Below are positions 17,209 to 63,780 of a stretch of 64,000 nucleotides of DNA, in pieces. The stretch comes from Scenedesmus sp. PABB004 (lineage: Eukaryota), in the NCBI GenBank assembly GCA_014905635.1, contig JABVCE010000033.1, positions 1 through 64,000 on the forward strand, given 5' to 3'. Position numbers and translations under genes: made by a program. Numbering within the stretch: the first letter of the stretch is position 1; every line of letters begins with the position of its first letter. The notes under the pieces were generated by a model. The model searched no databases and was not told the DNA's origin. It worked only from the letters and a program-made list of their open reading frames with translations.

Positions 17209-20770
<3,562 letters not shown>

Positions 20771-31087: not shown

Positions 31088-33501
31088 CGAGTGCGGCGGC
31101 GTGGCCCGGAACGGCGACCCGCCGCCGCGCCCGCCGCTGTGCGCGCTGGACGGCGAGCCGCCGCTGGGCGAGGGCGGGTCGGGGGCGTAGGCTGCATCAA
31201 AGTAGACCGACGCGCCGGAGGTGGCCGACAGCCTGTGCACGCGCGGCGGCGCGCCCGGCCGGCGTGGGCGCGGACGGGGCTGCGCGGGGCTGCGCGGGGC
31301 TGCGCGGGGCGCGGGCCCCCGCGCCCCCGCGTGCGAGCGCGCGCGCTCCCGCCGCACCTGGACGCCGCCGACATGGGCGTCGCCCAGCCGTCCGCGTCGC
31401 TCGAGGCCGCAGAGGCGCGGCGCAGGCGGTCGCTGCTGACGCGCAGCCACTGCCAGCTGCCGCTGCCGCTGTGCCGCCCGTGCGGCGCCTGCAGGTGCGC
31501 GCCGCCGCCGCCGCTGCTGGCGCCGTGCCCGTGGCCGTTGGCGGTCGCCGCCGGGGCCTGCAGCACGATCGGCGGCTGCGCGCGGCGGCAGCGGCGGCAG
31601 CGGGCGGGTCGCGCCGCGCAGGGGCAGGAGCCGAGGGCAGGCCGCGGCCCCTGGCGCGCCGCGCCGCGCTGCCGCGCGCGCCGCCCCCGCCGTGCCTGAG
31701 TGCTGCGCGGGTGCGCCGCGAGGGCGGCGCTGTCTGCATCCATCTTGTCCAGCCAGCTCTGCCGCACGGCGTCATAGTCGAGCGCCCCACCGAGGAAGGT
31801 CGGCACCAGCTCGCGCCCAAACTCTGTCAACAGCGCTTGCTGTTCGGGCGGCGGCGCGGCGCGGCGAGGGGCTGGGCGTGTGCGCGCCGCCCGCGCAGGG
31901 CGCGCGGCGGGCCGGCCCCCCGCGCCCGCGCGCGCGCGCGCCGCTGTGCACCTGCATGGCCTTGCCGCCGCTGAGGACGTGCACCTTGTCGCGCGTGCCC
32001 TGCGCGACCGCCAGCGCGGCGGCGACCCCGGCTGAGCGGCGGCTGAACGGCGGCGCCCACTGTCGTTCCCTGCCTCCCTCCCTCCCTGCCTCCCTGCCTC
32101 CCGCCGGCGCCGCCGCGCCTTGTCGACAAAGGGCGCAACGAGGCGCCAGATCGCGGTGAAGGTCGCGCCCGCGTTTGCGATGTAGATCGCCTCCGCGCAC
32201 TCGGGGTAGTTGTCGCTGTCCATGGCCGTGATGAGCCGGAACAGCTGGACCACACAGCATTCAAGGGGGGCAGGGGGGAGGGCGAGGCGTCAAGGGAGGA
32301 GCGCGAGGCGCGCGGGGGCGTGCGAGGGAGTGGGAGGGAGGGCGGGGCGCGGCGGCGCGCGAGGCGCGCTGCAGCGCGGCGGCGGCGCACCCGCTGCGCA
32401 AAGCCGGTGAGCGCGGTGAGCGTGAGGCCCTGCGCGTCCATGATGCTCACGATGCGGTCGACCGTGTGCCCCGCCACCGCCGACGCCTCGGGCAGCACCA
32501 CCTGCGCGGCGCGCGCGCGCGCGGCGCGCGTTGCTGGCGGCCGCCGGCCCGCGCCCAGCCCAGCCCGCACGCCGCGCGCTGCGAGCCCGGGCCCCCCGCG
32601 GGCGCGGGGCGCCCTGCACACTCCGCTCGCGCGCCCCGTCTCAGCCCCGTCCCCCCTCTCATCGGCCCCCGGTCCGCGCCTGAGCCATAAACTCCATCTC
32701 GCGCAGGTGGTACGCCAGAAGGACGTCGTCCGACACGCCCTCGCGCTCCATGCGCTTGCCGTCCAGCTTGCCCAGCCGCTCCACAAACACCGGCCGGCGC
32801 TGCGCCGCGGCGGCGGCGGCGGCCGGCTCGGCTGCCGGCGCTGCTAGCTCCCAGCAGCGGCGGCGGCAGCTGCGGCGGGGCGCGGCGCACCTCGCGGTCG
32901 TGCCCGATGTAGCTGCTCGGCCGGCACGCGCGCACGAGCGACACCAGCCGCGCGTCGAGCGGCTGCTCCAGCGCGGCGTCGGCGCCGACCTGGGCGCGCC
33001 ACGCGAGCGACTCTGCGGCCGCGGCGGCGGCGGCGGCGGCGGCGTTGCGGTGTGTGTGTGTGTGTGTGTTGGGGGGGGGGGGGGCGCCGCGCGCGCCGCG
33101 CGCGCCGCGCGCGCCGCAGCAGCAGCAGCAGCGGCAGCAGCGGCACACGCACTCTCCAGCATCGCCGCCGCCGCGTCGACCGAGTACTTGCGCGCGCGCA
33201 GGAAGCGGAAGAGCGTGGCGTCGACGTCCCCAGCCACGATCAGGGCGTGCGGCAGAGCCACGGCGCGCGCGGCGAGGCGCGCCTTGAGCTCGGCGAGCGC
33301 GTGAGCGTGCTCCTGCGGCGCAGCGCCGCCGAGCAGTTGGCGGGCGCGCCGCGGCGGCGCGATCGCGCGCCCACGCGGCCTGCGCCCCCGCCACGGCACC
33401 TGGTCGAGGTCCAGGTGCGTCTTGCGCACGGCGGGGCCCCGCGAGGAAAAGCGCCGGCCCAGTGCGGACGGCGACTGCGGCGGCGCCGCCGGCGGCGCCA
33501 T
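30848..33501 (-). CDS. SEC14-like CRAL-TRIO lipid-binding protein
   Basis: DATLFRFLRARKYSVDAAAAML, SLAWR, GHDRE|RRPVFVERLGKLD, SIMDAQGL, DSDNYPECAEAIYIANA, IWRLVAPFVDK|GTRDKVHVL, VPTFLGG. Confidence 0.93.
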
Positions 33502-33840: not shown

Positions 33841-34777
33841 ATGGCCATGCCACGCGCGCTGCTGGCGCCCGGCAGCAGCAGCAGGCTGGCCGCGCCCCTG
33901 CCCGCCCGCCGCGCCTGTACCGTCGCCCACGGTGAGGCACAGCGCGTGCCCCCAACGCCCGCAACGCGCCGGCGCGCCGGGGCAGCACCGCGGCAGCGCG
34001 GCGCCAGCGCGCGGGCGTGTGGCCGCCGCTGCTGCCGCGGCGCCGCGCCCGCGCCGCGGCCACGCCCGCCCCGCACCCGCGCCGCCCCGCAGGCCTGCGC
34101 CTCGCCGCCGCCGGCCGGGGGGCAGTGGCCGCGCCGCTGCGGCAGGCGCGCGGCGCGGCGGCGCCGGCGCCGGCGCCCCGCAGCCGCGGCGTGGCCGCGC
34201 GCGCCGCGCCGCCGGGCGACGGCGAGCCCGCGCCGCCGGGCGAGCGGGCGGTGGTGTACAACAAGGAGTTTGGGTACAGCCGCAAGGACGTGCTCATCAT
34301 CATCGTCGCGCTCATCGGCGCGGGCGTGCTGATGTATGAGGGCCTGCAGGCCGCCGGCATGGACGCGGGCATGGCCGGCAACTGGGTCCAGCTCACCATC
34401 TTCCTCGGAATCTGCGTCGGCTGGGTCTCAACCTACCTCTGGCGCGTCGCGAACAAGGTGCGCCGCGCCGCGCGGCGGCGCCGCCGCCCTGCGACCCGCC
34501 TGCGCGCGACGCCGCGCCGCACCGCTCCGCGCGGCCGCGCCGTGCCGACCCCGCCCCGCCCGTGCCGCGCCCCTGCGCCTCGACTCTGCCCCAGAAAATG
34601 ACGTACGCCCAGCAGCTGCAGATGTACGAGGAGGCGGTGATGTCGAAGCGGCTGGAGGAGATGACGGAGGCGGAGCTGACGCAGCTGCTGACAGAGGTCG
34701 AGGCCGACCGGGAGAAGCTCGCGGCGACAAAGGCGGCGCTCGCGCGGCAGCAGCAGCAGAGCCGCGGCGCGCCGTGA
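33841..34777 (+). CDS. DUF3007-family plastid membrane protein
   Basis: Transit peptide, then YNKEFGYSRKDVLII..GMDAGMAGNWVQ..VGWVSTYLWRVANK|KMTYAQQLQMYEEAVMSKRLEEMTEAEL. Confidence 0.88.
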
Positions 34778-34942: not shown

Positions 34943-37111
34943 CTACCGCGCGGCGGCGGCGCGCCCGCGCGCGCGGTCCCACAGCCCTGGCGCCGCCGCG
35001 ACCGCGCCGTCGAGCAGGTAAGCGCTGTTGCGCTCCCCGCACGCGGGCAGGTCGTAGCCATAGTTGCACATGACGCCCACGCTCCGGGCCAGCCCCGCGG
35101 CGCTGAGGTCGGCCCTGCGCGGCGCGCGCCCGGCGCGCGGCCGGCGTGGCGGCCGCGGCGCGGCTGGTCAGCCGGCCCGGCGCGCGCCAGCCCAGCACGC
35201 GGCGCGCGCGCGCGCGTGCGGGCCACAGCACGCACCGCGCGTGGACGGCGAGCAGCATCGCCCCGTTCTTCAGGTGGAAGTGCTGCACCGGGTCGAGCGC
35301 CGCCCCGCGCCGCTTCTGCGTGAGCAGGTACACCAGCCCCAGGCGCGCCAGCAGGCCCTGCAGCGCGGCCGCGTGCGGCGCCGGCAGCGCCAGCCAGGCG
35401 TCCGCCTCCAGCAGCTCCAGCAGCGCCGCGGCGGTGGCGCCGCCGCCGTTGCCCGCGTCTGCTGCGCCCGCGGCGCCGTCGCCGGCGCTCGGCGGCGGCG
35501 CCGCGCGGCCGAGCGCCGCCAGCGCGGCGCGCGTCGCCGCGGCCTCCTGCGGCTGCAGCAGGCTGCCCGGCTGCTGCGGCGCGCCGAGCGCCGCGGCGGC
35601 GACCTCCGCCGCCGCGCAGGCCCCGCCGCCCGCCTCCTGCCGCAGCGCGGCGACGAGCCACGCGCGGAAGCCCGGCATTGGCGAGAGCGTGACGAGGCGC
35701 GTCAGCCCCGGCAGCTCCGCCTGCAGGGCCTGGGCGGCCCGCACGATCAGGAAATGGCCCAGGTCCACGCCGCCCAGGCCCGGCTGGCCCGCAGAGATGC
35801 TGTAAAAGCACGCGACGCTCCCGGGCGGCCCGCCGCCGGCGTTGCTGGCGGCGCCGCCTGGCTGCTGCTGCTGCTGCTGCTCCTGCGGCGGCTGCGGTGC
35901 GAGCACCTCGTCCATGGTGGCGGGCACGTGGTCCATGATGGCCGTGTGGAGCACCACGAGCGGCTGCTCGGGCAGGCTGGGGTGGAAAAAGGCAAAGACA
36001 CGCCTGCAGCCCAGCCGCCCAGCGGCGGGGCAGCGCCAGGCTCGCCGGTCAGGCCCGCCCTGCCAGCGGCGCGCGGCCGCGCGGCGCGGCGCCGGCCCGC
36101 CCCGCAGGGGCTCGGGCGGCGCGGCAGCCCACCTGTCGGACTGCTGCAGGCGGCGCTTGAGCTGCTGCACGTGCTGCATCACGTGCACCGCCTCGGCAGC
36201 CATCACGCGCTCCTGCCGGCGGGGCAGGGCGAGCTGTGGGCGCGGCTGCGAGCGCGGCACGGCGGGCCCCCCTCCAGCCGCGGCCGCGGCGCCGCGCGGC
36301 GCGCAGCTACCAGCAGCGCGCCCGGGGTGGCCTCCCACGTGATGCGCTGCAGGCGCAGCAGGCCGACGTTGAACCAGCGCGCCAGCGCGCCCCTGTGCAG
36401 CAATGGCGACAGGCGTCGACGGCGTCGGCGCGCGAGCGGCGACGCGCCCGCCGCCGGGCCGGGCCGGGCCGGGCCGAGCCGGGCGCGCGCGGCGCACCGC
36501 AGGTGCTGCGCCAGGCCGCGCAGCGCGGCGCCGTGCTCGAGGCCCGGCTGCTCCGCGAGCAGCGCCAGCAAGTCGCCGCGCAGGCGCACGAGGAAGGCGA
36601 TGCCGTCGGGGTGCTGCGCGAGCGGGAGCAGCAGCTGCAGGTACAGCGGCTGCGCCGCGCTCGCGAGCCGGTCCGCGAGGCGGAGCTGCAGCTCCGGCCC
36701 GCCGTCGCGCCGCCGCGCCGCCCAGAGCGCCGCCGCGTCGTCGACCGCGCGCGGCTGCACGCCAAACTCGCACGCGAGCAGCGCAAACAGGGCGCGGCGC
36801 TGCTCCGCGCTGCGCGCGAGGCGACGATACGCCGTCATGAACAGCGCCGGCACTGCGTCGGGGACGAGCCCGCCCGCGCCCTCGGCGCGGTGCACCGCGA
36901 TCGCGTCCGACACCAGCGCGCGCAGCTCGCGCGTCGACTCGGCGCTCCCCGCTGGGGGCCCGGGCGGCGGCGCCGCCGCCGGGGTTTCGAGCAGCGACGA
37001 CCACTTCTCGATCAGCTGCGCCGAGCTGATGCCGCGCCGCGCGGCGGCGGCGGCGGCGGCGGCAGTGGCATGCGCCGCCGGGCGCGCCGCCGCCAGCGCG
37101 GCGGCCAGCAT
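34943..37111 (-). CDS. MLYCD: Malonyl-CoA decarboxylase
   Basis: GIAFLVRLRGDLL, WFNVGLLRLQRITWEATPGALL, EAVH, RRVFAFFHPSLPEQPLVVL, FYSISAGQPGLGGVDLGHFLI, TLSPMPGFRAWL, LDPVQHFHLKNGA, ADLSAAGLARSVGVMCNYGY. Confidence 0.95.
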
Positions 37112-37462: not shown

Positions 37463-40400
37463 ATGGAGGGTGCGTGCGGGCGGGGCGCTGGCGCTCGGAG
37501 GGGCTCGCATGGGCACAGGCGCGACGCCGCCGCGCCGCGCAGGCTCCGCCGCGCAGCAGCAGGCGGGCGTGGCGGTCGTGCTCGCGGCCGCGGCCGGCGG
37601 CGCTCAGCAGGCGGCGGTGCTGCCGCCGGACGTCAAGACCTACGCCGGCCTGCTCGACTTTGCGCGCCGCACCTTCAACCAGCCCGACCAGGTCGGTGCG
37701 CGCGCGGCGAGCGGCGGCCGCGACTGCGGCGCGCCGGCTGCCCCACGCGCGCGGCCTGCCGCGCCCCGCTCGCAGGAGCTGGCGTTCACGGACGGCCAGC
37801 GCGACATCAGCGGCGACCAGGATGTCGTGGCGCTGGCGCCCGGGCAGCGCGTGCTCGTGCGGCCGGCGCGGGCGCACGACGCCGGCGGCGTGTTCAAGGC
37901 GCGCCGCCGCCGCCGCCGCCGCCCAGCCCCCCTGCTGCCCTGCCGCAGCCGCAGTCGCCGCGCTACCGCCGCGCCTGACGCTCCCCGCACCCTGGCGCGC
38001 GCAGGAGCGCATCAGCTTCAACCCGCACCCCAAGACGCTGACCATGGCGGGCGACTACGAGTACTTCGCGGCCCAGGGGCACCACCCGCTCGCGTTTGCG
38101 CTGGCCGAGCTCGTCGACAACGCGCTGCGCGCGACCAAGGGCGGCGGCGCGGCCGCGCCGCGCCGCATCACGGTGCAGCTCGTGACGGACGCGCGCGGCG
38201 GCGCGGGCATGGTCGCGGTCTCGGACAACGGCAGCGGCATGACCGTCGCCGAGCTGAACAGCTGGGCGGTCATGAACCTGTCGATGGAGGACCGCGGCCT
38301 GCTGCCGCCGACCACCGACGAGCCCAAGGGTGCGCGCGCGGCCGCAACAACAGCGCGCGCCCGTCCCGCCTGCGAGCCGGGCGCCGCCGCCGCCCGCGCC
38401 TCCCCACGCCGCCTGCCCACGCCTGCCCACCCCGCCGCTGCCGCCGCCGCCGCCGCTGGCGGCTCGCGCGCCGCAGCCGGCAGCCGCTACCTGAGCAGCG
38501 ACATCTCCTACTTTGGCGTCGGCTCCAAGAACGCGGCCTTCTACCTCGGCCGCACCGTCAAGGTCGTCACCAAGACCGCAGACTCGGACTACGTGCACGA
38601 GCTCTGCATCCAGGGTGGGCCGCCCCGCCGCCGCCGCAGCCGCAGCAGCAGCAGCGCGCCGGCGCGCCACGCCTCGGCCGCCGCCGCGCCGCCGCGCCGC
38701 CGCCGCCGCCGCCGAGTCGCCTGCCGCCGCCCGCCGCGCAGCGGCCGAGCTAGAGCGGCGCTACTGCGAGGGCCAGGCGGTGTATGAGGAGGACATGCTT
38801 CACCGCACGCCCGGCGACGCGTGCAGCATGGCGCCCGCGGAGCGCGCGTTCCCGCAGCCGCAGCAGATGCTCGCGGCGGAGGTGCGCGGCCGCGCGGCGC
38901 GCGGCCGCCGGCGCCGCTGGCCGCCGCTGGCTGCTGACTGCCGCGGCCGCCCCGCAGGCAGCGTCCGGCGGCGAGGGCGGCGGTGGTGCGGCCAGCTTCA
39001 CGCGCGTGCTGATCTACGACCTCAAGCCCGACGTGCTGGCGCAGCTGTGCGACGAGGACGAGGGCGCGGGCGTGCTGCGCGACCTGGCGCACCTGTACCA
39101 CTACTACCTGCACGCCGCGGGGGGCAACGCCTTCACGTGCGGGGGCTGGCACGGGGGCGCTGCGGCGCTGCAGCGCTCACGCGGGGCGGCAGCCCGGCCC
39201 AGGCTCAGACGCGCGCGCCGCCGCCGCCGCCGCCGCCGCCGCGGCGCAGCACGTCGCACGCGTCGCAGCTGCCCAACGGCGAGCGCGTGCCGGACATCCG
39301 CGTGGAGCGCTGGCAGGGCAGCGCGGGTGTGTGGGCGCGCAGCCTGGTCGAGGTGGACGACGACCTGGAGAGCCGCTACCTCGCGGCGCAGCGCGCGAGC
39401 ATGGAGTTTGTGCTCAGCGTGCCCAACCACGGTGCGGCGCGGCGACGCCGCCGAGGGTCGACCCCCGGCCGCCGCCGACCCGCATTCCCGGTGCTGCGCC
39501 GCCGCGCCGCTGCGCGCAGGCAAGGTCGAGGGCGTGCTGTGGTACTTTCCTTATGAGAACGACCAGGAGACGGTGCCGCTCGACGCGCACACCATGGGCC
39601 GCATGCTCCTCACCGCCAACCGCGACGGCGCCGGCGGCGCGACGCAGACGCACCGCGGCGGCGCCGGCGGCGCCAGCGCGGCGCCGCACACGCAGCTCGG
39701 CGCGCCGAGCCACCAGCAGCAGCTCGCGGCGTGGCAGTCGCAGCGCGGCGCGGGCACGCAGGCCGGCAAGGGCAGCGGGCAGGACCTCGACGCGGAGCAG
39801 GACGCGGGTGCGCGCACGCGCGCGCGCAGCGGCAGCGCCTGCCGCCGCAGCGCCGCCCGGCAGCGCCCGCCTGACCCCACCTGCCGCTGCAGGCTACGCG
39901 GCGCTGCTGGCGGCGTGCCCCACGTTTGAAGCCTTCTGGCAGGGCCGGCTCATCCCGGGCGCGTGCGTGGACACGCTGCCCTTCATCCGCGCCGTGCGCA
40001 GCAAGCGCACCGCCGCCGCGCGCGACCTGCTGCCGGACGAGGCCTTCGCGCGCATCAGGTGCGGTGGTGGGGGCAGCGGCGCCGGGGACGGCGTCGTCTG
40101 TCGGTCGGTCGCCGAGGCGCCTCTGCGCCGCGGCCGCCGCGCTCAGCCTGTGGCCGCGCCGCCGCGCCGCCGCGCCCGCGCAGGGGCGCGCTGTTCTTTG
40201 GCCCCGGCTTCCGTGTGACGCGCAACAAGCTGACGTTCCGCGACAACCTGGCGCTGCTGCTCGAGGGCGCGAGCCCGACCGACCGCCACCTCGAGCGGCG
40301 GTTCAAGGACTGGCTCGTCAACTGCCACCGCACGCTCGACCGCAGCGTGCGCTTCGAGGTCCTCTGCAGCCAGTCGGTGCAGGTGCGGCCGCGGGGCGGC

Positions 40401-43400
40401 GGCGGCGGCGGCGCCCGCGGCAGCCTCGTGGCGCGCGCCCTCTCACCGCCGCGCCCGGGCCGCTGCCGCCGCCGCCGCCGCAGTCGCTGGCGCGCAAGCA
40501 CCTGGGCGTCGACGTGACCGTGTTTGAGCGCGTGCACGACGGCCTGCAGACCATCAGCAAGGGCGACGTCGTGCGGCTCAACACCAAGCCGGCGGTGCTG
40601 GGGCGCGTGAGTGCCACGCGCCGCCAGCCCGGCTGTTGGCGCAGGCGCCGCCGCCGCCTCCCTGCTGCCGCCGCAGTGCGCCGCCCACGCGCGCCGCCGC
40701 CGCTGCCTGCCTCGGTGCGCAGGTCGTGCACTTCAGCATCCCCCAGGTGGTGCAGGCCGAGGGCTGCTACTCGGGGGGCCGCGTCACCGTCACGGCGCTG
40801 CCGCAGGAGCTGCTCGGCGCCGACAACCTGCACACCTGGCCGCTGCGCCGCCTGGAGGGCCTGGTCAGCAGCGAGGAGCTGGCGGACCACGTGTCGCGCG
40901 AGCTCGCCAAGGTGCGCGGGGGCGGGCCGGCAAGCGGCGGCCGCCGCACGCGCCCCACAGCGCGCCCCTCACCCCCCCCCCCTCCCCTGCCGCGCCGCAG
41001 CTGCCGGCGACGCTGCGCTTCGAGCCGCTGCGCCTCGCCACCGGCAGCGTGGTGAGCCTGCCCGCGGGCAGCAGCCTGCCGGAGACAAGCGTCGCGGTGG
41101 TCAACGGCCTCGGCGCCAAGGTGGTCAAGGCCCTGCTCGGGGGCAGCCGCGAGGCGCTGCGCGTGGTGAGCGCGCGCGCGCGGCAGCGCGGCGCGGCGCG
41201 CGGCGCGGCGCGCGGCGCGCCACGCGACCAGGCCGGCAGGCCGGCGCTGCCGGGCGGCGGCGGCGCCGACCGCACCGCCGCCGCCGCCGGCGCTGCGCTG
41301 CGCGTGCAGTCACAAACGCTGTACTACCTCGGCCCAGCCGGCACGGCGCGCAAGCGCACCGCCGCGGCCGCCGGCCAGCCCTCGGGCGGGGGCGGCAGCG
41401 GTGGCCAGGCGGACATCGCCACGGCGGCGGCGCCGCCGGCCGACGACGCCGCCGGCAAGCGCGGCCGGCCGCGCGGCAAGCGCCGGCGCAAGGGCGCCGG
41501 CGCGGCAGAGGCGGGCGACGCGGAGAAGGAGAATGAGCTGCCCGCGGCCACAATGGCAGAGCCGGGCGCTGAGGGCGGCGGCAAGGTGGTGGAGGCGGCG
41601 GCGGAGCCGGCAGAGGTGCGTGCGGTGCCAGGCCCGGCGGGCGCGGCGGCGCGCGGCGGCCTCGGGCGCCGCCCGCCACGCTGCCGCGCGCCGCCGCGCG
41701 CAGGCGGACGAGGTGCCGGAGGGCGAGGTGCTGCTGACCGCTGAGAACAGGAGCCCCAACCACGACACGTTCCAGTTCCAGCGCATCACCGGCGGCCTCA
41801 CGTGGTGCGTTGCGTTGCGCCGCCGCGCCGCGCCGGCTTGCGCGCGGGCGCGGCAGCGCTCACACGCCCCCTTCCGCCCCGCCCGCCTGCGCAGCGCGGG
41901 CTGCTACGTGCTGCAGTACAGCCTTCTGCCCGAGCTGCCAGGCGGGCGCACGCTGCGGCTGAGCATCGACCTGCAGGTCACGCCCGCCGCGCCGGTCGCG
42001 TTTGACATACGGGTGCGGCGCCGCCGCTGGCGCCCCCAGCTGGAGCTGCCAGCTGCTGCCCTCGCGGCCGCCGCCAGCCCGCACACTTGACTGCACGCTC
42101 GCACGCCCGCGCCGACCGCCCGCCGCCCGCGCCGCGCCGCGCCGCCGGGGCAGGGCGAGGGACGCGCGATCGCGCTGAGCAAGGCGGTGATGCTGGGCGA
42201 GGCGCTGCCGCCGCTGCGGCTCGCGCTGGTCGACGCGCACGGCAACATGGTGCCCGGCGGCGGCGGCGCGTGGACGGAGCGGCCGGTGCAGCTGCAGGTG
42301 CTCGCTGGCGGCGCGCCCGGCGGCGGCGCGGTGCTGCAGGAGCTGTCGGTGTCGGCGGACATGGTGCGCGCACGGCCTGGGGCGCAGACGCGCGGCCAGG
42401 CACCGCACGCGCGCATCCGACAGCACCCCATGGCACCCTGCTGAGCCCGCCGCCGGCCGGCGCGCGCGCCCCTGCCCTGCCCTGCGCAGGAGGAGGCGCA
42501 GGACGAGCTGCTGCTCACCCGCCTGCGCATCATGGGCCCGCCGGCGCCAGCCGCGGGCGGCGCCGGAATGCGGCTCTTCCGGCCGCACCCGCCGCCGGAG
42601 GCCGACCGCACGGCCAGCGGCGCGGCGCCGGGCCAGCGCGGCGCGGGCAGCGGGCCGCCGGTGAGCCTGCCCATCGTGCGCGCGGTGGACGTGTTCCTTG
42701 CGGCGCACGTGGAGGGGCTGGCGCCGCAGGTGGGCCACGGCGCAGGGTGCCGGCCGCTGCAGCGGCGAGGGGGCCGGGCTGCGCGGCCGTGCCGCTCACG
42801 CGCCGCGCGCCGCGGCAGGGCTTCCCCCTGCGCCTGGCGCCCGGCGCGCCGCACTCGGTCCGGCTGCTGGCGGGGCACCCCTTTGTCGGCGGCGCCGAGG
42901 CGGAGGAGGGCGCCGCCGCGCTGATGACGCAGCTCCCCGCGCCGGGGCAGGCGCTCGCGGCGGCGGAGGCGATGAGCGGCGAGGCGCTGCCCTCGTTCAA
43001 GGTGCGGCGCTTGGCACCAGGCGCGCGGCGATGTGGCAGCGCTCGCGCCGCGCAGGTGCAAACCCAACGCCGCGGCGGCGCAGGTGCAAACCCTGGACGT
43101 CTGGGGCAACGCGACCTGCCCCAGCGACGAGCTGCCGTTTGAGGTCGCGCTGCAGTGCGACGCGGCCGACCCTGCGGCCTGCAGCTTTGGCGTGGACGAC
43201 AGGTGCGCTCGGGCGCGGCCTGCGCGGGCGCCGCGTGCCCCGCCTCGGCTGCCGCAGCCGCGCCGGGTCGGCGCCACGCTCGCCAAACGGGCCGCCCGCC
43301 GCGCCTGCATCATCCACCCTTCTCCCCGTAGGGGCGTGGCGGTGGTGAGCGGCGTCTCGGTGTACCGCCAGGACGCCAAGGCCGAGGCTGAGGGCGAGGC

Positions 43401-46400
43401 CGCCGCGTCGCCGCCCGCCGACGCGGAGCTGAGCCAGCGCCACGCGCTCCTGCTGTGGCCGGCGTGCGCCGCGGTCGAGGCGGCGCCGCTCGTGGCGGCG
43501 CTGGAGGTGGCGAGCCCGCAGCAGCAGCTCGCGCTGGAGCTGCTCGTGCAGCCGAGCACGCGGCCGGCGGAGCTCATCATGACCTATCAGGGCGAGGTGG
43601 GTGCAGGGGGCGGGCAGGCGGGGCGGCAGGCAGGAGGCAGGGCCAGGCGGGGAGCACGCAAGGGCCCAGCGTGCGGCAGCGGCGGCGGCGAGCTGGCCCC
43701 GCCGCGCCGCGCCGTGCAGGAGCTGGGGCGGCGCACGCAGGAGGGCGCCGAGGGCGGCGAGCCTGACCTCGTCTGGCAGCTCGCGGGCGTGGAGGCGGGC
43801 AGCCGCGTGGAGGGCCTCGCCGTGCGCTGCGTTGACGAGGTCGGCCGCCCCGCCGCCGGCGGCGTGCGCGGCAAGATGCAGGTGGGGCGCATCCCCGACG
43901 CGGGCCGCGGCGCGCCGCGCCGGGGCTGCCCCCGGCACAGCGCCCGCCGCCCCTCACGCGCCGCCGCGGGCGCGCGCAGGTGTCGTGGGCCAAGGGCGCC
44001 AAGAAGGCGCTGCTGGGCGGCGACGACATCCGGCTGCCGCCGCTGCAGGCGCCCGACGCGGTGGGGCCGGCGGTGCCATTCTGGGTGCGCTTCATTGGCG
44101 ACCCCAAGGAGTGGCCGGGTGCGCGACGCGGGCGCGCCGCGCACGCGCGGCGCACGCGCGGCGCTGGCGCTGCCAGCGCTGGTGCTGGTGCTGCTGTGCC
44201 GCGGCGTGCGGCAGGGGCGGGCTCGCGCGCCGGCGCCCCAAGTCTCCTCACAACCCGCGCCCCTGCCTCCTCCCCAAACGTAAACGGCCAGGCGTGTCGC
44301 TGGACATCCAGTTTGAGGTGTCGGTCGCGCCCGGCCCCCCCGCGTCGTGGAGCGTCGCCATCGTCGACTACGCGCGCGGCGCGGCCGCGGCGGCCGCCGC
44401 GGCGGCGGGCCGCGCCACGGGCGCCGAGCGCCCGGGCGGCGACGACCTGAGCGCCATCCCCTGCGGCCAGCCCTTTTACCTGGAGATTGAGGCCCTGGAC
44501 GCATGCCACAACCGGTGCGGCGCCAGGCTGCCGGCGCTGAGCTTGCCCAGGCAGCGCGCGAGCCGCCTTGCCGCGCCCAGAGGGCTGAGCTTGGCGCGGG
44601 GGCTGAGCCTAGCGCGGCGCGCCGCGCAGGTGCTGCTTCGCGAGCGCCGAGGCGCGCCCGCGCCCAGTCGTGCTGGCCGAGGCGGTCGACCCCGAGGCGG
44701 CGCTGGCGCTCGAGCCCGACGCGTGGCAGCACAAGTGGGACAACACGCAGGCCGGCGGCGACGTGTGCCTGTTCAAGCTCTGGCTCAAGGGCCCGCCGGG
44801 GCCGGTCAAGCTGTTCGTGCGGTGCGCCGGGCGGGGCGCGCTTGCCCCCGGCGCGCGCGCGCGCGCCCCCCAGCCCGCTGCGCCCCGCCCGCTCAGCCGG
44901 CCCGGCCCCGCGCGCCCGCGCCCGCCGCCGCCTCCGCGGCAGGGACGACGCAGGCGAGGACGGCGCGTCGCTGCTGGTGCCGGACGAGCTCAGCGTGGAC
45001 CTGCTGCCCGGCCCGCCCGCCGCGCTGGTCGCCGACTGCCCGCCGCAGCTCGCGTGCGGCACGCGCGGCCTGGTGGAGAGCCTGCCGGTGCGGGCGGTCG
45101 ACGCGCACGGCAACCTGGCGGAGAGCGCGACGTTTGAGGTGCGGGTCGGGGGGCACGGAGGGCCGCGGGGCGCGCCCAGCTGGCGGCAGGCGGCGGCCGG
45201 CTCAGCCGCCGCGTCGCGCCGCGCCGCGCCGCGCCGCGCCGCAGGTCGCGCTGCAGGGCAGCGCGTTCAACGCCGACGGCAGCGCCGCTGCGCGCGTGAG
45301 CGCGGCCGGCAGCAACCGGCTCAAGCTGCGTGGCGGGCTGGGCGCGTTCAAGGCGGTGCGGCTGCAGGCGCCCGCGGAGGGTGTGTACAAGCTGGCCGTG
45401 TCGAGCGTCTCGCGCAAGGTCGCGGTGCAGGAGGCGACCGTGCTCGTCCAGGTGCGCAGCCGGCACGCGCGCGTGCCGCGCGCGTGGCGGCAGGCCTGTG
45501 CAGGCCCCCGCTGACCGCATGCGCGCCCACGCTGGCGTGCCGCAGGTGGCGCAGCAGAACTTTGTGGTCGGCCTGGAGCTGCTGCCCGCGAGCCTGCCGG
45601 GCGAGGCCGGCGGCGCGGCGGGCGCGGGGCTGCAGGTGCTGGTGGCGCTGGACACCGAGGACCGCGCGCCGCTGCCCTGGGAGGCGGTGGCCGACGGGCT
45701 CACGCTCTGCCTCGCGCCGCCCGGCGGCGAGGCCGGCGGCAAGGCCAAGGGCGGCAAGGGCGGGGCGGGCGCGGGCCGGCGCGCCGACGCGGTCGTGCTC
45801 TCCCCGGAGCGGCTGTTCGACCCGGCCGCCGACGAGGCCGCGGGTCTGGGCGCGGCGGTTGCGGAGGCCGCCGCGGCCGCGGCGCCGCGCGGCTGCGTCG
45901 TTGTGTTTGCCACGCCCCCGCTCACCGCGGCGGGGCAGTACACGCTGACGGCCGAGTACGCCGAGCGCCGGCCCGCGCTGCTGCCGGGGCTGAGCAAGCA
46001 GGAGCTCTGCCTGCGCAGCACCTCGGCGCAGCTTGCCGTCGCGGCGGGCCCGGTCGCCGCCGCGGCGCTGCAGGCGGGCGGCGCCGACGCCGAGGCGCTC
46101 GCGGTCAGCAACGGCAAGGACGCCGGCTCGCGGTGCGGCGCACCGCGCTGCGGCCCGCGCGGCGCCACGGCTCCCGGGGCTGCCAGGCCGCTCACGCCCC
46201 TCGCCCGCCCGCGCCGTGCTGTGCAGGCGGCTGCTGCGCAACGCGGTGGTGCAGCTGCAGGACGACCACGGCAACGCCACGCCCATCGCGGACGTGCCCG
46301 TGCGCTGGCGGCTGCTCGCCGCCGACGCGGGCAGCCGCGACGACGGCGCCGAGGCGCCGCAGCTCGTGTGCGCGGCGGGCGAGCTGCAGCTGGCGAGCGA

Positions 46401-49004
46401 CGAGCGTGGGCGAGCCTTCTTCGGTGATGTCAGCGTTGAGGCCGGCACCGGCCGCATGGTGCGAACGCACGCGCATCGGCGAGGCGCTGGGGCTTGCTCG
46501 CGCCGCCGCCGCCGGCGCAGGCGCCGGCCCCGCCCCTCCGAGGCCCGCGCTGACCCGCCCCGCCCTGCGCGCCTGCCCCGCGCGCCGCAGCCCGCCGGCG
46601 CGGGGCGCGCGCTGGACTGCGTGCTGGAGGCGCAGGTGCTGCTGCCGCGCGCCAAGAGCAGGCGCAGCAGCAGCCCTGGCTCGAGCTGGGTCACCGTGTG
46701 GACGCGGCCGGTGGTCTTTGCCGACGACGCGGCCCGCATCCGCCAGCTGCAGGTCGGCGCGCCCGCACGGGCGGGAATGCGCGCGCGACGGCCGGCGGCC
46801 GGCGCTGACGCCCGTCGTCTGCGCCGCCTGCCCTGCCCGCGCGGCGCGCTGCCTCTGACGCAGGCCCTGCAGGAGCAGAAGGAGGAGCTGCAGCAGCGCC
46901 TCGCCGCGGTCGCGGAGGGCGTGGCCGACGTGCAGCAGCGCGTGGACGCGGCGACGCGGGAGCACGCGGCGGCGGCCAAGGCGGCGGCAAAGCAGCTCGA
47001 CACGCTGCGCGTCGCGCTGCGGCGGCCGGAGCTGGAGCTGCCGCAGGACGCGCGCGAGGCGGCGGCGGCGCTGCAGACGATCAAGGCCGCGGCGGCCGAG
47101 CAGCCCGAGAAGTGCGCCGCCGCAGCAGCAGCGCGCGCGCCGCGCGCGCCGCGCCAGCCCCCCGCGCGCCCACGCGCCCACGCGCCGCGCTCCGCCGCCG
47201 CCGCCGCCGCCGCAGGCCGCAGCTGTCGGGGCGCTACGGCGGCAGCCGGCAGAGCATGACGCTGTCGATCGCCCGGCTGCTGCAGAGCGGCGACGCCGAC
47301 CTGGTGGGCGTGTTTGCGCAGCTGGGCTACGTCGACGAGCCCCGCCTCAGCGCGGTGCTCGCCGCGAGCTACTGCGCCGCGCTGCAGGTGTGGACGGGCG
47401 CCCGCCGCGCAGGCCCTCCTCGCGGGCCTCCGCGCTCCCGGCGCCCGGCGCCCCTGCCGCCCAGCCCGGCGCGCGCGCGCGGGCAGGCGCCGAGTCGCCG
47501 GCGCGCGTGCCCCGCCGCGCCTTGCCGCAGGTGATGGTGGTGCGGTCGTACGAGGCCATCGCGCGGCTGCGCGGCGCGGCCAAGGCGGGGGGCATGGCGG
47601 TGCCCTCGATGCTCTCCTACAGCCTCATCCAGGCGCGCCGCGCGCGCAGCACGCACAGCACGCACAGCACAGCACGCGCAGCGCGGCCCATCCCTCGGCC
47701 GGGCGCCCTTCCTCGCACGCCCTGGGCTGACGCGCCGGCGTCGCGCCGCCCCGCCCCCGCCGTGCGCGGCAGGAGTACACGTCTGAGAGCGGCCCCTTTG
47801 GCGGCGACACCGTGATGCGCGGCGTGACGCCGCTCGCGCGGCGCCTGCTCGAGGACGCCTGCCTCGGCACCGATGACCCGCTGCCCATCCCGCTCCCGCA
47901 TACGCGCCAGCTCTGCCTGCTCCGCAGCCGCAGCCGCGACGGTGCGCCGCGGGCGCACGGGGGAGGCGCGTGAATCGGCTCGCCGCGCGCCCGCCCGCGC
48001 GCGCTCATGCACGCTCACGGCCGCCCGCCGCCGCTGCGCAGGCCAGGGCCTGCCGCGCGGGCTGGCTGCGGAGGAGTGGCCGCCCGGGTGCCTCGGCTAC
48101 GCGGTCAACCTGGTGCGCCCCGCGCTGCCGGGCACGCGCAAGGGCCTCATGTACGCGCAGGTGCGTGTGCGCGCACGCGCGCACGCGGCGGCGGCGGCGG
48201 AGCCGGCGCGCCAAGCAGCAGCCGGGCCAGGCTGGGCGTGCCCACGCGCCTGCCGCCGCCGCCGCAGATGGGGCGCACGCTGGTGTTTGAGACCATCAAG
48301 CAGGCGGCCGAGTACAGGCGCGCGCGCACCGGCAGCCGCCATCCCCCCGCCGGCGCGCGCCCCGCGCCTCGCCTCCCGACCCTGCTCGCCCCTCCCCCGC
48401 GGCCGCGCCCTCCTCACCACCCGCCGCCCGCGCGCGCAGGCAGTGGGTGGTGCAGACGCTGCGCGGCACGACCGCGGACATCGTCACGCTGGACGAGGGC
48501 AAGCTCAGCGGGCGCGGCGTCGTGGTGGGCAGCAACTTCCGCGTCCTGCCCGTGTCAGACGCGCCGTTCCGCTTCGGCACCATCCCGCCCGGCCAGCAGG
48601 CTGCGAGCCAGGCGTCGCCGTCGCAGTGCGCGGCGGCGGCGGACGCGCTCGCCGACGCGCTGGACGCGCAGCGCGCCGCCGCGGACGAGCTCGCGGCGGC
48701 GACGGCGGCGGCCGCCGCGCCGGAGCACGCGGCGGCGGAGGCGCGGTTCGAGGAGATGCAGCTGCAGCTGGCGGAGCTGCGGCAGCAGCTGCGGCAGCAG
48801 CAGCGCGCCGCGGAGGGCGAGGGCGGCAAGCGCGCCGGCAGGGCGACGCAGGCGCGGCTGACGCAGGCGCGGCCCACGACGACGCAGGCGGGCGGCGAGC
48901 GCGAGGAGGCGGGCGGCGAGCGCGTGGTGGACCTCACCGGCGACGACTGCGGCGGCGGCGGCGGCGAGGGCCGCACGCAGCGCAGCAAGCGCAGGCGCGC
49001 GTGA
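37463..49004 (+). CDS. SMCHD1: SMCHD1-like protein: UBL-like N-terminus, GHKL ATPase, long Ig-like linker, coiled coil and SMC hinge; many exons
   Basis: [127 protein letters not shown]. Hinge: VGVFAQLGYVDE, GYAVNLV, MGRTLVFETIKQAAEYR, IVTLDEGKLSGRG. Confidence 0.92.
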
Positions 49005-49171: not shown

Positions 49172-51381
49172 TCAGCCGTAGCACCGGATAGGGTCTGCGC
49201 GCGGCGAGGCAGTGGCGGCGCCGGCAGCGTCTGTCTGAGCGCGCCGCGCCGCCGCCGCCGCCGCCGCCGGCGGCGCGCCCCCGCCCCATCCACCCGCAGC
49301 CCCAGCGCGCGCACCGTTGCAGCCCTTGGACGCGTCCTGGGCCTGCCCGAAGCGGCCGCCGCGTGCGAGGTACTGCTGGTGGTAGGGCTCTGCGGCGCTG
49401 TACCCGCTGACCGGCTCCAGCTCGGTCACGACCTTCACGCCCGGCATGGCCGCCCGCTTCTCCTCCAGGAACCTGAACCGCAGTGGGGGCGTGTGGGTGT
49501 GGGTGGGTGTGGGTGGGTGTGGGTGGGTGTGGGTGGAGGGGGGGGGGGGGGGGGGGCACGCGAGGCGCGTGCGTGCGTGCGGGCGCGAGGCGGCGCGGCG
49601 CCCGCGCCCGCGCGTCACGCACTTGCCCGCCTCCTCGAGCTGCTCCGGCGAGTGGGTGTAGATGCCCGCGCGGTACTGCGGGCGGGCGGGCGGGCGCGCG
49701 CGGGCGCGGCAGGGTCGGCGGGCGGGCGGGCGGCGGCGGCCCGCCGCGCCGCGCGGCGCGCGCCGGCCGCAGCCCCGCCGCGCCTGCGTGCCGACGTCCG
49801 CGCCCTGCTTGTTGAGGCTGGTCGGGTCGTGGGAGCCCCAGAAGACGTCCAACAGCTCGCGGTAGGAGACCTGGCCCGGGTCGTACGTCACCTGCACGAC
49901 CTCGGTGTGGCCCGTGGTGCCGCTGCAGACGTCCTCGTAGCTCGGGTTCTTGACCTTGCCCTGGCTGAAGCCCACCTCAGTCGACACCACGCCCGGCACG
50001 CGCTGCGCGGACGCGCGCGGCGCGGCGTCGCGTCGCGGCGCGGGCGGGCGCGGCCGTACGCCGCCGGTGCCGCCGGTGCCGCCGCCGCCGCAAGTACCGC
50101 CCCGCCGCGTCGCTCCCCGCGCCCGCCGCGCACCATGAAGCGAAGCTCGGGCCCCAGAAGCACCCGGAGCCTGCGACGGCACGCACGCGTCAGGGCGGCG
50201 GCCAGCAGCGGCGCCGCCTGCGCGCGCCCCGCGGCCCGCCGCGCGCGCACCAAACGTGGCTTGGCCAGCGCGTCGGCCGCCGCGAGCGACACCAGCTCCA
50301 CGTCTGGCGCGCGGCGCGACGAGCGGCGACGCGGCGTGAGGTGCGCACACCGGGCGGCCGCCGCCCCCAGCAGCACGCGCGCCGCGCGCCCCGCGCCATC
50401 CCCGCGCGCGCACCAAACGTCAGGTGCTTGCCCGCCAGCTCGTGGTTGAGGTCGAGCGTGACCTGCTCGTCGCCCATGTCCGTCACGGTCGCGGGCAGCC
50501 CGTTGCTGAGCATCACGCGGTCGCCGAGCGCGAGGCCCTCGGGCGCCTTGGCGCGGGGGATGGTGATGATGTACTCGGGGTTGACCTGGCCGGACGGCGG
50601 CGGTCAAACCGCAGTCAAACGCGGCCGGGCGCCGCGCGGCTGCTGGTGCACGGCGGCGGCGGCGCACCTGGCCGTACGCGTCCTCCGGCGCCACCCGGAC
50701 CTTGTTGGTCTCCCCGACCTTGAGCCCCGTCACGGCGGTGTCAAAACCCTTGATCACCTGCGCGCGCGCGCAGGGGCGGCCGGGCTCGCGCGCGGGCGCG
50801 CGCCGCCGCGCGCGCCGCTCGCGCCTGCGGCGCACGGCTGCACTCCGACCTTGCCGCCGCCGACGTTGAACTCCAGCGGCTGCCGGCCCTCCTTGCGGCT
50901 GGTGTCAAACACGGTGCCGTCGTCCAGGGTGCCGGTGTAGTGGACGGTGACAAAATCGCCCGCCTTGGCAGCGGCGGCCGCAGCCGCCACGGAGACGCGC
51001 CGCGCGCCCGCGTGGCGGCGGCCTGCCAGCGGCGCCGCGGCGGGGCGCGCGCCCGCGCTGCGGCTGGGGTGGTCGTGGGATGAGGGGTGGCGGTGGTGGG
51101 GGGGGGCGGCGGTCGGCGGCGGCGGCGGCGGCAGCAGCGGCAGCGGCCGTCGGCGCGCCGCCGCTCGTCGCTGGCGCGGCCCGGCTGGCCGGCTTGTGGC
51201 TCAGGGCGCCCGCCTCTCAGCAGGACGCGACCGCTCAACGGCGTGGGCACCGCGGCCAACGGGCTGGGCAGCAGCAGCCACACGCGAGTGCTGCACAGGG
51301 GCAGCAGCCACGCGCAAGTGCCATGCGCATTCGCGAGCGCGCCAGTCCCCCGCACCTGAGCGCACGCCGAGCAAGCTGCAT
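49172..51381 (-). CDS. Organelle-targeted fusion of a SlyD/FkpB-type FKBP PPIase (with insert-in-flap domain) and methionine sulfoxide reductase A; two apparent 1-nt deletions in the assembly
   Basis: [68 protein letters not shown]. Msr[73 protein letters not shown]. Start codon uncertain. Confidence 0.88.
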
Positions 51382-57169: not shown

Positions 57170-60100
57170 ATGGCGGACTCGAAAGCAGCGATGCCGGACC
57201 GGCAGGCGCGCCCCGCGCCGGCTGGGGGCTCCCAAGCCGCCTGATCGCGGTCCCGGGGCCTGCCGACACCGGCGGCGGCGCCCGCTGCCCGCCGCCGCAC
57301 GCGCCGCGGCCGGTGCCGCCGGTGCCGCCGCTGCTGTCGCTGCCAGGGCTGCCAGGGCGCGCCCGCAGCGCCGGCGGAGCACCTGCTCCTGCCGCCGCCG
57401 CTGAACCCCCTCCCCCGCGCCGCGCCGCATCGCAGGCGTCGCTGCGCTCGGCGTCGTTCGCGCACATGCCGCGCGGCATGAGCGCCGCGGCGTTCGGGCA
57501 CCTCAAGACGGCCGAGAAGAAGCTGCTGGCGCGCGTGCTGTCACTCAACATCGCCCTCATGCTCGTGAACTACCTGGACAGGTGGGACACACAGCAGAAG
57601 AGCACGCCGGGCGCCGCACAGCGCGCGGACGCGCCGGACGCGCGGCGCCAGTACGGCGCGGCGCGGCACAGCGCGGCGCGGCGCGGCACGGCGCGCCGAG
57701 CCGCCGCCGTCCCGCGCGCCCCGCACGCCCCGCGCGCCGCGCACACGTGCAGGACCAACCTGAGCTTTGCGTCGGTGCAGCTGAACCGCGACATCGGGCT
57801 GAGCAAGTCTGACTACGGCCTCGGCGCGGGTGCGTGCGGCCGCGCCCAGCCGGGCGGCCGCGCGGCCGGGCCGCGCCGCGCAGCGCGCCGCGCGCCCCGG
57901 GGCCCGCCGCCGCCGCCGCCGACGGCGCCGCGCGCCGTCGCCGCGCCCGCCGCTCGCCCGCCCCCCCCCCCCCCCCCCCCGGCCGCCGCTGGTGTCTCCT
58001 GCAGGGCTGTTCTTTGCGGCGTACGCGAGCATGCAGGTCCCCGCCAACATGGTGATGACCAAGATAGGCGGCCCCATCTGGCTCGGCACCATCGCGCTGC
58101 TCTGGGGCGTCGTGGCGACCTGCTTCGCGGCCATCCGCAACGTCCACACCTTCCTCGCGCTCAGGCACGGACGGCGGGCGGGCCCCCCTCGGCGGGCGAC
58201 GGCGCCGTGCGGCAGCGGCCCCGCAGCGCGGCGTGCGCGGCCGCCCGTCAACGCCCGCGCCCGCCGCCCGCCGCCTGCCAGGTTCCTGCTCGGCCTGTTT
58301 GAGGCGGGCGCGCTGCCGGGCATGTGGGCCTATCTGTCCCACTTCTACTCCAAGCCGCGCCTCACGCTGCCGCTCGGGTGCGCGCCGCGGCGCGCGGGGC
58401 GCCCGCAGCACGCGCAGCGCGCGCGCAGCGCCCCGCCCCGGCGCGGCGGCGTCGCGCCGCCTCGGCCTCGTCTGCCCCTCGCGCTGCGCCCGCCTCACGC
58501 ACGCGTGCGCCCGCCTCAACACGCGCGCACGCGTGTGTTGCCCGCCTCACACACACGCGTGCCCACCTCACACGCGCAGGTACCTCATGGGCGCCCTGAT
58601 CGTGAGCCAGGCCATCGGCGCGCCCCTGGCCGCGGGGCTCATGGCGCTCGACGGCCGGGGCGGCCTGCAGGGCTGGCAGTGGTGAGCCGCGCGCAGCTGG
58701 GAGCCGCAGCGGCCGCGGCCTCGGGGCGCGGCGCGCGCCGCGCTCGCCGCTGCCGCCGCCGCCGCTGCCGCCGCGCCCTGACCAGCCCCGCCGCGCCCCG
58801 GCCGCCCCGCGCCGCCGCGCCTCGCCCCCAGGCTGTTCGTCGTGGAGGGCGTGATGGCGGTCATTGTCGCCGTCTGCATCCTCGCCTTCCTCCCGCGCGA
58901 CATCGACGCCGTGAAGGGCCTCACGCCCGACGAGCGCGCCGCGCTGCACGAGGCGATGTCGGCGAGCCCCAAGCCCGTCGGCAGCGCGCGCGCCGCGCTG
59001 CGCGGCGCGGTGACCAACCCGGCTGTGTTTGTGGGCGGCGCGATCAAGTTCTTCAGGGACGTCGCATTCTACGGCATCACCTACTGGTGGGGAGGGCGCG
59101 GGAGAGGGTTTAGGGAGGGAGAGGGTTTAGAGAGAGGGAGAGGGCTTTGAAGGAGGGAGAGGGAGAGGGGGAGCTGCTGCGCAGCGCTGCGCAGCGCTGC
59201 GCAGCCGCCGCGGCGGCCGGGCCGGCGCGCCGGCACAGGGGCGCGGCGGCGACGCCGCCGACGCGCGCGCGGCCGCCTCTCCGGCCAGCCCGGCCCGCCC
59301 GCGCTCCCTCGCCGCGCCGCCCGCGCTCACATGCGTGCGCACCGCGCGTCCCTGCAGGATGCCGCTGGTCATCGAGACCATGCTGCCCAACACCGACCCG
59401 CACACGCGTGGCCTCTACTCAATCCTGCTGACCGCGGTGCCGTTTGTCTCGAGCGCGGTCGTGCAGTTTTTCACGTCGTGGCACTCCCAGCGCGCCAACG
59501 AGCGCCGCCTGCACCTCGCCGCGTCGTGGGCGCTCGGCGTCGCGTGCCTCGCGCTGCTCCCGGTCGCGCAGATGCGCGGGTCGTCGGGCGGCGCGTTTGC
59601 GCTGCTCGTCATCGGCGTCGTCGGCGTGTTTGGCGTCGAGGGCATCTCCGTCGCCTTCTACCTGGCCCTCATGGTGCGGCGACCAGACGAAGCACATGGT
59701 TTCGTTTGTTTGTTTGTTTGTTTGTTTGTTTGTTTGTTTGTTTGTTTGTTTGTTTGTTTGTTTGTTTGTTTGTTTGTTTGTGTGTTTGTTTGTTTGTTCA
59801 AGGGTTGGCGGGGCCCACACACGCGGGCACAGCCCCGCGCGCCGCCCACGCGCGCGCGCCGCCGCCGTCCCGCGCCGCCGTGCGCCGCAGGGCGGCGAGA
59901 AGGGCGCCGGCATCTCCATCATCAACGCCATCGGCGCGCTCGGCGGCTTCGTGGGCCCCTACGTGATCGGCGCGCTCACCCAGGCGTCGGGCAACTACTA
60001 CGGCGCGATGTGGATGCTCGCCGCGTTCCTCGCTGTCGCCGTCGCGGGCACGGGTGCGCCCCCGGCGCCCCCGGCGCGGCCCCCCGCCCGCGCCGCGCGC

Positions 60101-60415
60101 CGCCGCGCGCCGCCCGCCGCGCCGCCCACGCGCCCGCCGCCGCCGCCGCCGCGGCGCGCAGTCATCGTGCGCGAGTCGTGGGCGGCCAAGTTCAGCCTGC
60201 GGCCGGGGCAGAAGCCCCACCCCGAGCGCGTCGCGTCGGGGCGCATCCCGTCCGTGTTTGCCGACGGCTGCATGGCGGCGGCCATGGTCGGCTACCTGCC
60301 AGAGGAGGAGGAGGAGGACGAGGACGAGGAGCAGGGGCCGCCGCGCGGCGCCGAGGCCGGCGGCGCGGGCGTGGAGCTCGCGGCGGGCGCCAAGGAGCCG
60401 GCGGCCAAGCCATAA
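57170..60415 (+). CDS. MFS transporter, anion:cation symporter type (TtuB/Dal5-like organic acid or nicotinate transporter)
   Basis: NYLDR|TNLSFA, YGLGAG|LFFAAY..QVPAN, LR|FLLGLFEAGALPG, LDGRGGLQGWQW|LFVVEG, GISIINAIGALGGFVGPYVIG. Confidence 0.92.
59703..59798. repeat. (TTTG)n microsatellite in an MFS intron
   Basis: Directly visible, about 24 units. Confidence 0.95.

Positions 60416-62726: not shown

Positions 62727-63780
<1,054 letters not shown>

Follow-up and report, generated by a model that had tools for sequence, protein, structure and literature searches.

A gene encoding an FKBP-MsrA fusion protein

The stretch of DNA analysed here (the window, 64,000 nucleotides) covers positions 1 to 64,000 of contig JABVCE010000033.1 of Scenedesmus sp. 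PABB004, and on its minus strand it contains a gene in which an FKBP domain of the insert-in-flap type is joined to a methionine sulfoxide reductase (MsrA). This fusion is real, conserved and widespread in algae; it is not new, the family having already been named and automatically annotated, and the function of the domain pairing is apparently undescribed so far. The gene is assigned by sequence comparison as the single-copy orthologue of Chlamydomonas MSRA4 (Cre01.g012150 / CHLRE_01g012150). The window copy itself is merely one more member of the family, with a sequence problem.

Gene modelling on the window gave a ten-exon nuclear gene that runs from an ATG at 51381 to a TGA at 49172, all boundaries of its introns (eight GT-AG and one GC-AG) being canonical and its exons adding up to 1039 nt as assembled. 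Exon 1 (51356-51381) carries the start codon and the first eight residues of a probable organelle transit peptide, and resembles the N-termini of the Tetradesmus and Raphidocelis proteins. Exon 2 (50850-51057) encodes the remainder of the Ala/Arg-rich leader and the first half of the FKBP domain (HYTG, FD) and exon 3 (50668-50757) the FKBP core (VIKGF to AYG), both recognised as FKBP_C by Pfam above the cut-off (E 6.5e-10 and 1e-6). The insert-in-flap chaperone domain, placed between the flap tyrosine and the final FKBP strand, and a DLNHELAG motif lie in exon 4 (50414-50585). Exon 5 (50251-50303, 53 nt) holds the final FKBP strand, a short linker and the first MsrA strand, and exon 6 (50134-50170, 37 nt) the catalytic GCFWG motif; each of these two is one base short. 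Exon 7 (49784-50002) contains the MsrA core (SYEDVC, GHTEVV, HDPT), with a Pfam PMSR match of E 8e-31 and 107.8 bits, and is followed by the GC-AG intron. The YRAGIY motif is in exon 8 (49623-49675), the EPYHQQYL motif and the first C-terminal cysteine in exon 9 (49315-49472), where PMSR is also matched, and DPIRCYG with the second C-terminal cysteine and the stop codon in exon 10 (49172-49194).

The first 40 residues include 17 Ala and 7 Arg and no Asp or Glu. This composition, together with the automatic "chloroplast" term on Chlamydomonas MSRA4, is the basis on which the leader is considered probably a transit peptide directing the protein to the plastid, the mitochondrion being a possible alternative. 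The GC donor of intron 7 (AG/GCGCG at 49783) is found in the same form at 63083, within an intact ubiquitin-conjugating gene (62728-63640), and such donors are apparently ordinary for this genome.

Genomic neighbourhood

The GC content of the window is 71-88%, reaching about 88% over the start of the contig (1-6000); a simple repeat, hexamer-like, lies near 17.3 kb (17250-17470). Tail to tail with the fusion gene lies a gene of about 36 exons on the plus strand (38002-48993), with an N-terminal GHKL ATPase and a coiled-coil end, which we take to resemble SMCHD1/SMC-hinge proteins. Pfam identified a SprT-like protease (about 14100-15000), a DUF3007 protein (34251-34760), a malonyl-CoA decarboxylase (35000-36900) and the ubiquitin-conjugating enzyme mentioned above, and an MFS-type transporter (57430-60397) and a CRAL-TRIO-like gene (31700-33230) were recognised by eye only. 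These six neighbours have no functional link to the fusion gene. On the minus strand, at the 3' end of a leucine-rich repeat (LRR) gene found by Pfam, there is an apparent frame switch without a good intron (53080-52920), one frame entering UTR-like DNA and the other reaching a TGA near 52920; this may be another one-base gap, the third in the area, at a distance of 2.8 kb from the fusion gene.

Two one-base gaps in the assembled copy

In the canonical splice product the reading frame is lost after ADALAK and GCFWG, which is encoded in exon 6 yet out of frame as assembled, is never read; the uncorrected frame meets a premature TGA in exon 7, at about 49979-49977 by hand count. When an N was scored at every position against the orthologues, the first gap was placed at 50257-50266 (best fit 50260-50258) and the second at 50148-50152, directly after GCFWG, both on the minus strand, and an independent search with a coding model put the deletions at 50259 and 50140. 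One N added to exon 5 and one to exon 6 give a model of 346 aa that is 77.9% identical to the Tetradesmus obliquus fusion and 60.5% to Chlamydomonas MSRA4. An earlier note on this DNA had read DVELVSL through A-K-A-T-F/GSGCFWG as a single frame, which does not hold, exons 5 and 6 each being one base short. Its claim that a 53-nt exon joins the FKBP end to the MsrA start survives in part: the exon at 50303-50251 is real and leaves no room for a second gene start between the domains, where the note had seen no promoter or second transit peptide, but the supposed absence of a stop fails because the frame is broken as assembled.

Rescue through other splice sites was considered and rejected. An enumeration of splice paths over the gaps left 2770 of 8236 open; among the paths listed none with GT donors only keeps GCFWG, and those that do keep it need weak GC donors. 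Skipping of exon 6 or retention of intron 5 would be in frame, with the catalytic cysteine lost either way. No unusual hairpin structure was seen at the gaps (z -0.42), and among the contig pieces listed from one DNA run none spans either gap.

The two gaps are probably consensus errors of the assembly rather than the marks of a dead allele. The other possibility, that the window copy is truly broken and is a recent null allele giving only the FKBP half with a short nonsense tail, seems to us less probable but deserves real weight, this judgement concerning the state of the copy independently of any mechanism. Two frameshifts fall within about 110 bases of each other, whereas 11 control genes, with 13.4 kb of coding sequence modelled, were in frame throughout, in a run whose setting also overlooked the target's own two gaps, and a coding-model frameshift search of the control genes made only two calls, both at exon ends. 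Measured by these control genes, a pair of gaps within a single gene is out of the ordinary for the assembly. Three apparent gaps in control genes were boundary mistakes. Among 14 neighbouring genes of the window the frameshift search made 11 calls, confined to 4 genes and for the most part in pairs or at the ends of exons; these were judged artefacts from their sequence context alone. A null allele would also agree with two odd substitutions adjoining the gaps, Ala to Ser before GCFWG and Tyr to Phe at 208, each found in 0 of 68 orthologues, and with the presence in the genome of two other MsrA genes, unfused and modelled in frame (C1:4742300-4745500 and C16:513400-515000), the region itself being single-copy with no second copy in the 40 Mb, 80-contig assembly.

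Against a null allele, the rest of the gene shows no decay. The window model departs from the family in just 1 of 111 conserved columns (0-9 in orthologues, median 1), and this is the Tyr to Phe at 208, where mouse MsrA also has Phe; third-position GC is 94% and the splice sites are intact; and over exons 7-10 the identity to Tetradesmus equals or nearly equals that of Enallax (62 of 73 vs 63, and 43 of 53 vs 43). Moreover, each gap is the loss of a single base within or next to a short run of G/C, which is the usual long-read error, and the candidate frame switch in the LRR gene lies 2.8 kb away.

The FKBP half

The FKBP half of the window protein can be classed from its sequence as insert-in-flap, of SlyD type but not SlyD proper. 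The FKBP half of the orthologue, including the part corresponding to exon 4 (79% identical between the two), aligns end to end with a FKBP12-SlyD-insert chimera (5I7P) and with an archaeal protein (1IX5), and its scores against the NCBIfam models of SlyD (PRK10737, 54.1 with a cut-off of 174) and SlpA (PRK15095, 61.6 with a cut-off of 125) are below threshold. The isomerase residues Tyr, Phe, Asp, Phe, Val, Ile, Phe, Tyr and Phe are all present in the window model, the positions scored being, as we assume, those of the FKBP12 active site.

This is not so in the whole family. Among non-redundant fused FKBP halves the isomerase site is intact in 63 and decayed in 35, the former including green algae and dinoflagellates and the latter many stramenopile-type homologues, with brown-algal and chrysophyte copies among them. 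The first active-site Tyr is kept in 6 of 35 decayed vs 62 of 63 intact halves and the second in 4 of 35 vs 59 of 63, and the last Phe is mostly gone in the decayed set. The insert positions of these same decayed halves remain largely occupied by their Gly (33/35), Val (29/35) and Pro (26/35), and the Asp and Asn of the Asp-x-Asn motif are found in all 35. In two decayed proteins of chrysophyte type Pfam did not detect FKBP_C at all, so that this half is overlooked in such copies; the model of one decayed protein (pLDDT 88.1) nonetheless matches SlyD and FKBP26 structures with E about 4e-9. No isomerase half joined to MsrA without the insert was seen among the 429 proteins compared, the fused set being one for which a detectable insert was required. 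Since the isomerase site has decayed while the insert persists, client binding rather than isomerisation is indicated as the reason for the fusion; the contrast is suggestive rather than proof, and partly circular, because the decayed and intact groups were separated by score with the same profiles. The idea that the isomerase aids refolding is thereby weakened, the site having decayed in many lineages, although it is intact in the window copy.

The MsrA half and the junction

The second half of the protein is identified as a plant-type MsrA, the orthologue scoring 196.9 against TIGR00401 (cut-off 108.1) and the window gene containing the GHxEVV, QYR and HQQY motifs and the C-terminal resolving cysteines. 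In MsrA, reduction of methionine-S-sulfoxide is the work of the cysteine in GCFWG, which is then resolved by the C-terminal cysteines and recharged by thioredoxin. The GCFWG cysteine is present in 218 of 227 fused relatives, and of the 193 complete ones 123 have the C-x5-C end and 189 the last cysteine. In five fused proteins with a strong isomerase half (P0174, P0176, P0177, P0294, P0301) the catalytic cysteine is replaced by Ser, Pro, Arg or Asn, and these are possibly reductase-dead paralogues.

The junction is tight. From the LAG motif to GCFW there are 25 residues in 143 of the 212 fused relatives in which the spacer could be measured and 32 in 34 more, and a hand count gives 25 in the window model. 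In the AlphaFold model of the Tetradesmus protein (pLDDT 87.0, pTM 0.76, and pLDDT 97 over residues 161-180) the final FKBP strand (158-168) and the first MsrA strand (173-180) are separated by four residues. The FKBP half of this model matches SlyD, SlpA and FKBP26 structures, and the MsrA half matches poplar MsrA (2J89), which is both the top Foldseek match and the best solved relative, with E 6.5e-67 over residues 174-341.

Distribution of the fusion

The claim that the two domains form a single polypeptide is borne out by orthologues, including complete transcriptome ORFs, that carry both, and fused orthologues proved to be present across chlorophytes and beyond. With exon 4 as query, 8 proteins were retained among 53 candidates, 4 of them with both domains; with the Tetradesmus obliquus protein (residues 35-200) as query, FKBP_C and PMSR occurred together in 75 of the 120 matches listed, the fused ones spanning Chlorophyceae, Trebouxiophyceae and Pedinophyceae. 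Complete ORFs of 341-342 aa come from transcriptomes of Tetradesmus deserticola and Enallax costatus, and further transcriptome-derived fusions from Dunaliella tertiolecta and Chlamydomonas leiostraca. A dinoflagellate copy used as query added Effrenium, Polykrikos and Yihiella, the brown algae Scytosiphon and Pylaiella, and one chrysophyte. In Atlas clusters grouped by commonest phylum the share with FKBP_C was 93% for Chlorophyta, 25% for Bacillariophyta and 10% for Haptophyta, the Haptophyta cluster (score 0.88) being a lead only. By sub-domain profiles 227 of the 429 proteins compared are fused, near-copies counted. Some fused proteins carry leaders of red-algal look, for which Atlas gave no confirmation, and Mesostigma viride has a stand-alone FKBP of the insert-in-flap type.

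Outside eukaryotes the fusion was not encountered: none of the 80 loci kept among the matches listed had an FKBP part, in a scan that favours MsrA, and a long Nitrospirales match was a spurious extension rather than a prokaryotic fusion. A junction pattern with spacers of 22-31 residues gave five genome matches with no fusion among them and no match in viral sequences, and the exact 39-base window pattern was found in no metagenome contig. The exon 4 query returned six metagenome loci, and all five examined were prokaryote-type stand-alone FKBPs.

In domain trees the MsrA half of the window protein groups with Tetradesmus, Enallax, Raphidocelis and Monoraphidium (support 98) and the FKBP half with Tetradesmus and Enallax (support 96), and in both trees Chlamydomonas MSRA4 and the window copy fall in a common fused green-algal group. 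Both quick trees need 10-11 changes of fusion state, three of them forced by starred branches, and we therefore claim neither one origin nor several.

Two other arrangements were noted among the proteins compared. In P0188, of the dinoflagellate-type branch, an insert-in-flap FKBP is followed by a methyltransferase-like domain in place of MsrA. The eukaryotic proteins P0069, P0072, P0080, P0085 and P0090 combine a leader and an insert-in-flap FKBP with a further FKBP-like domain at the C-terminus, and appear from their architecture to be another eukaryotic family of this bacterial-type module.

Chlamydomonas MSRA4 and its expression

The suspicion that the fusion might already be annotated in algal proteomes was justified. 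The name MSRA4 for CHLRE_01g012150 is used in bioRxiv 10.1101/2021.03.30.437739, in its accessible part, and the portion of the PMC8374494 supplementary table that covers MSRA4 lists protein folding, prolyl isomerase, reductase and chloroplast terms. No description of the function of the fusion was met in the literature searched, most subscription papers and some supplements lying outside that search, and the accessible parts of PMC6162775, bioRxiv 10.1101/2021.02.26.433065, PMC3012604, PMC5599023 and PMC8256493 contain no mention of it. Annotation can thus be corrected on two sides, the Chlamydomonas gene having been treated as a plain reductase and its relatives labelled in databases either "peptidylprolyl isomerase" or "MsrA".

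According to the accessible parts of the respective papers, MSRA4 protein falls by 39% in heat stress (PMC3186191), and the transcript is lowered under NO (bioRxiv 10.1101/2021.03.30.437739) and in high light (PMC6162775, citing Chang 2014); in wild type the raw counts are flat with rose bengal (78, 87 vs 77, 84; PMC4067076). Since MSRA4 declines under three of these stresses (heat, NO and high light), a housekeeping part in quality control suits the data better than repair under stress. The proposal of an oxidative repair module therefore keeps the fusion, while a stress-repair role is weakened by these three responses as far as the sources extend.

Possible role of the fusion

We are tempted to suggest, with the chances about evenly divided, that the insert-in-flap domain serves to keep unfolded organellar clients next to the MsrA reductase. 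The protein would be nuclear-encoded and probably plastid-targeted, its FKBP domain packed directly against a plant-type MsrA. The insert may bind unfolded or newly imported chains, whose exposed oxidised methionines would be kept adjacent to the reductase; the isomerase site would be secondary, as a help in refolding, and the role may lie in routine quality control during protein biogenesis more than in an emergency response. In the accessible text of PMC6162775, yeast Msr enzymes are described as favouring unfolded substrates, and it is suggested that Msr enzymes may join protein-biogenesis complexes. A 2021 review (PMC8076862), in its accessible part, reports cooperation of Helicobacter MsrAB with GroEL and gives the order of holding, reduction and refolding as an open question.

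A broader reading, on which we put somewhat less than even confidence, is that algae of both green and red-plastid lineages carry an as yet unrecognised one-chain "holdase-reductase", in which the insert would capture unfolded plastid proteins and feed their oxidised methionines to MsrA, with a dispensable isomerase site and an FKBP half missing from the land-plant enzymes; the bacterial-type insert-in-flap domain would then be one otherwise little noted in eukaryotes. If true, the protein would offer a ready-made way to ask whether methionines are repaired during holding, and a conserved single chain in a model alga makes the order of chaperone and Msr action testable by simple domain deletions.

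It is rather unlikely that the FKBP half instead serves MsrA itself, as an inbuilt aid to its folding or stability, or that two independent activities merely share a transit peptide and a promoter. Unfused plant-type MsrA is common and works alone, the closest unfused branch to the green-algal fused group contains plant-like proteins (support 91, not starred), and the related FKBP-insert unit of P0188, with its different partner, speaks for a portable module; but the tight spacer and the insert are kept across distant algae even after decay of the isomerase site, and this persistence is more than co-targeting alone would need. Equally doubtful is an adaptor role, in which the FKBP-insert half would dock the reductase on one partner (import channel, ribosome exit, chaperonin or signal recognition particle, for example) instead of binding unfolded clients broadly. 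MSRA4 expression follows growth more than stress in the accessible data, and plastid Msr targets include HSP21, cpSRP54, cpSRP43 and chaperonin 60-beta in the accessible part of PMC6162775; set against this, no candidate partner emerged, and the conserved residues of the insert are the general ones common to bacterial stand-alone proteins. That gene prediction merged two adjacent genes can practically be dismissed, for although the assembled frame breaks near the domain boundary, complete transcriptome ORFs contain both domains and refute it at the family level, the junction is read without interruption in the proteins P0004, P0005 and P0006, and no start codon context or leader precedes MsrA. 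We retain the holding of unfolded clients beside the reductase as the preferred reading.

Comparison with known systems

The nearest counterpart is Chlamydomonas MSRA4, which has the architecture, spacer and C-x5-C end of the window protein at 60.5% identity; the window copy differs in its two one-base gaps as assembled. In the accessible literature MSRA4 has been named, and its expression followed, solely as a reductase, its FKBP half appearing just as automatic terms in a supplementary table. The plastid MSRA4 of poplar and Arabidopsis (2J89) has the same catalytic motifs but lacks the FKBP domain, the match beginning at residue 174.

With bacterial and archaeal SlyD, SlpA/FkpB, MtFKBP17 and FKBP26 the window protein shares the FKBP fold and the chaperone insert. 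SlyD has a histidine-rich metal-binding tail, which is absent here, MsrA following directly after the final strand, and a fusion to a reductase was not found among the prokaryotic insert-in-flap FKBPs in limited scans, whereas the algal protein is fused.

Neisseria PilB, whose architecture we take to be a thioredoxin-MsrA-MsrB fusion and whose structures are among the Foldseek matches of the Tetradesmus model, also provides an Msr with a helper domain in cis; its helper is a reductant and not a chaperone, while that of the algal protein is an FKBP with an insert. In Helicobacter pylori, so far as the accessible source describes it, MsrAB and GroEL bring a chaperone and an Msr to one damaged client, as is proposed for the algal fusion, but there the two are separate proteins in a complex, the chaperone being an ATP-driven foldase, whereas the algal protein is one chain.
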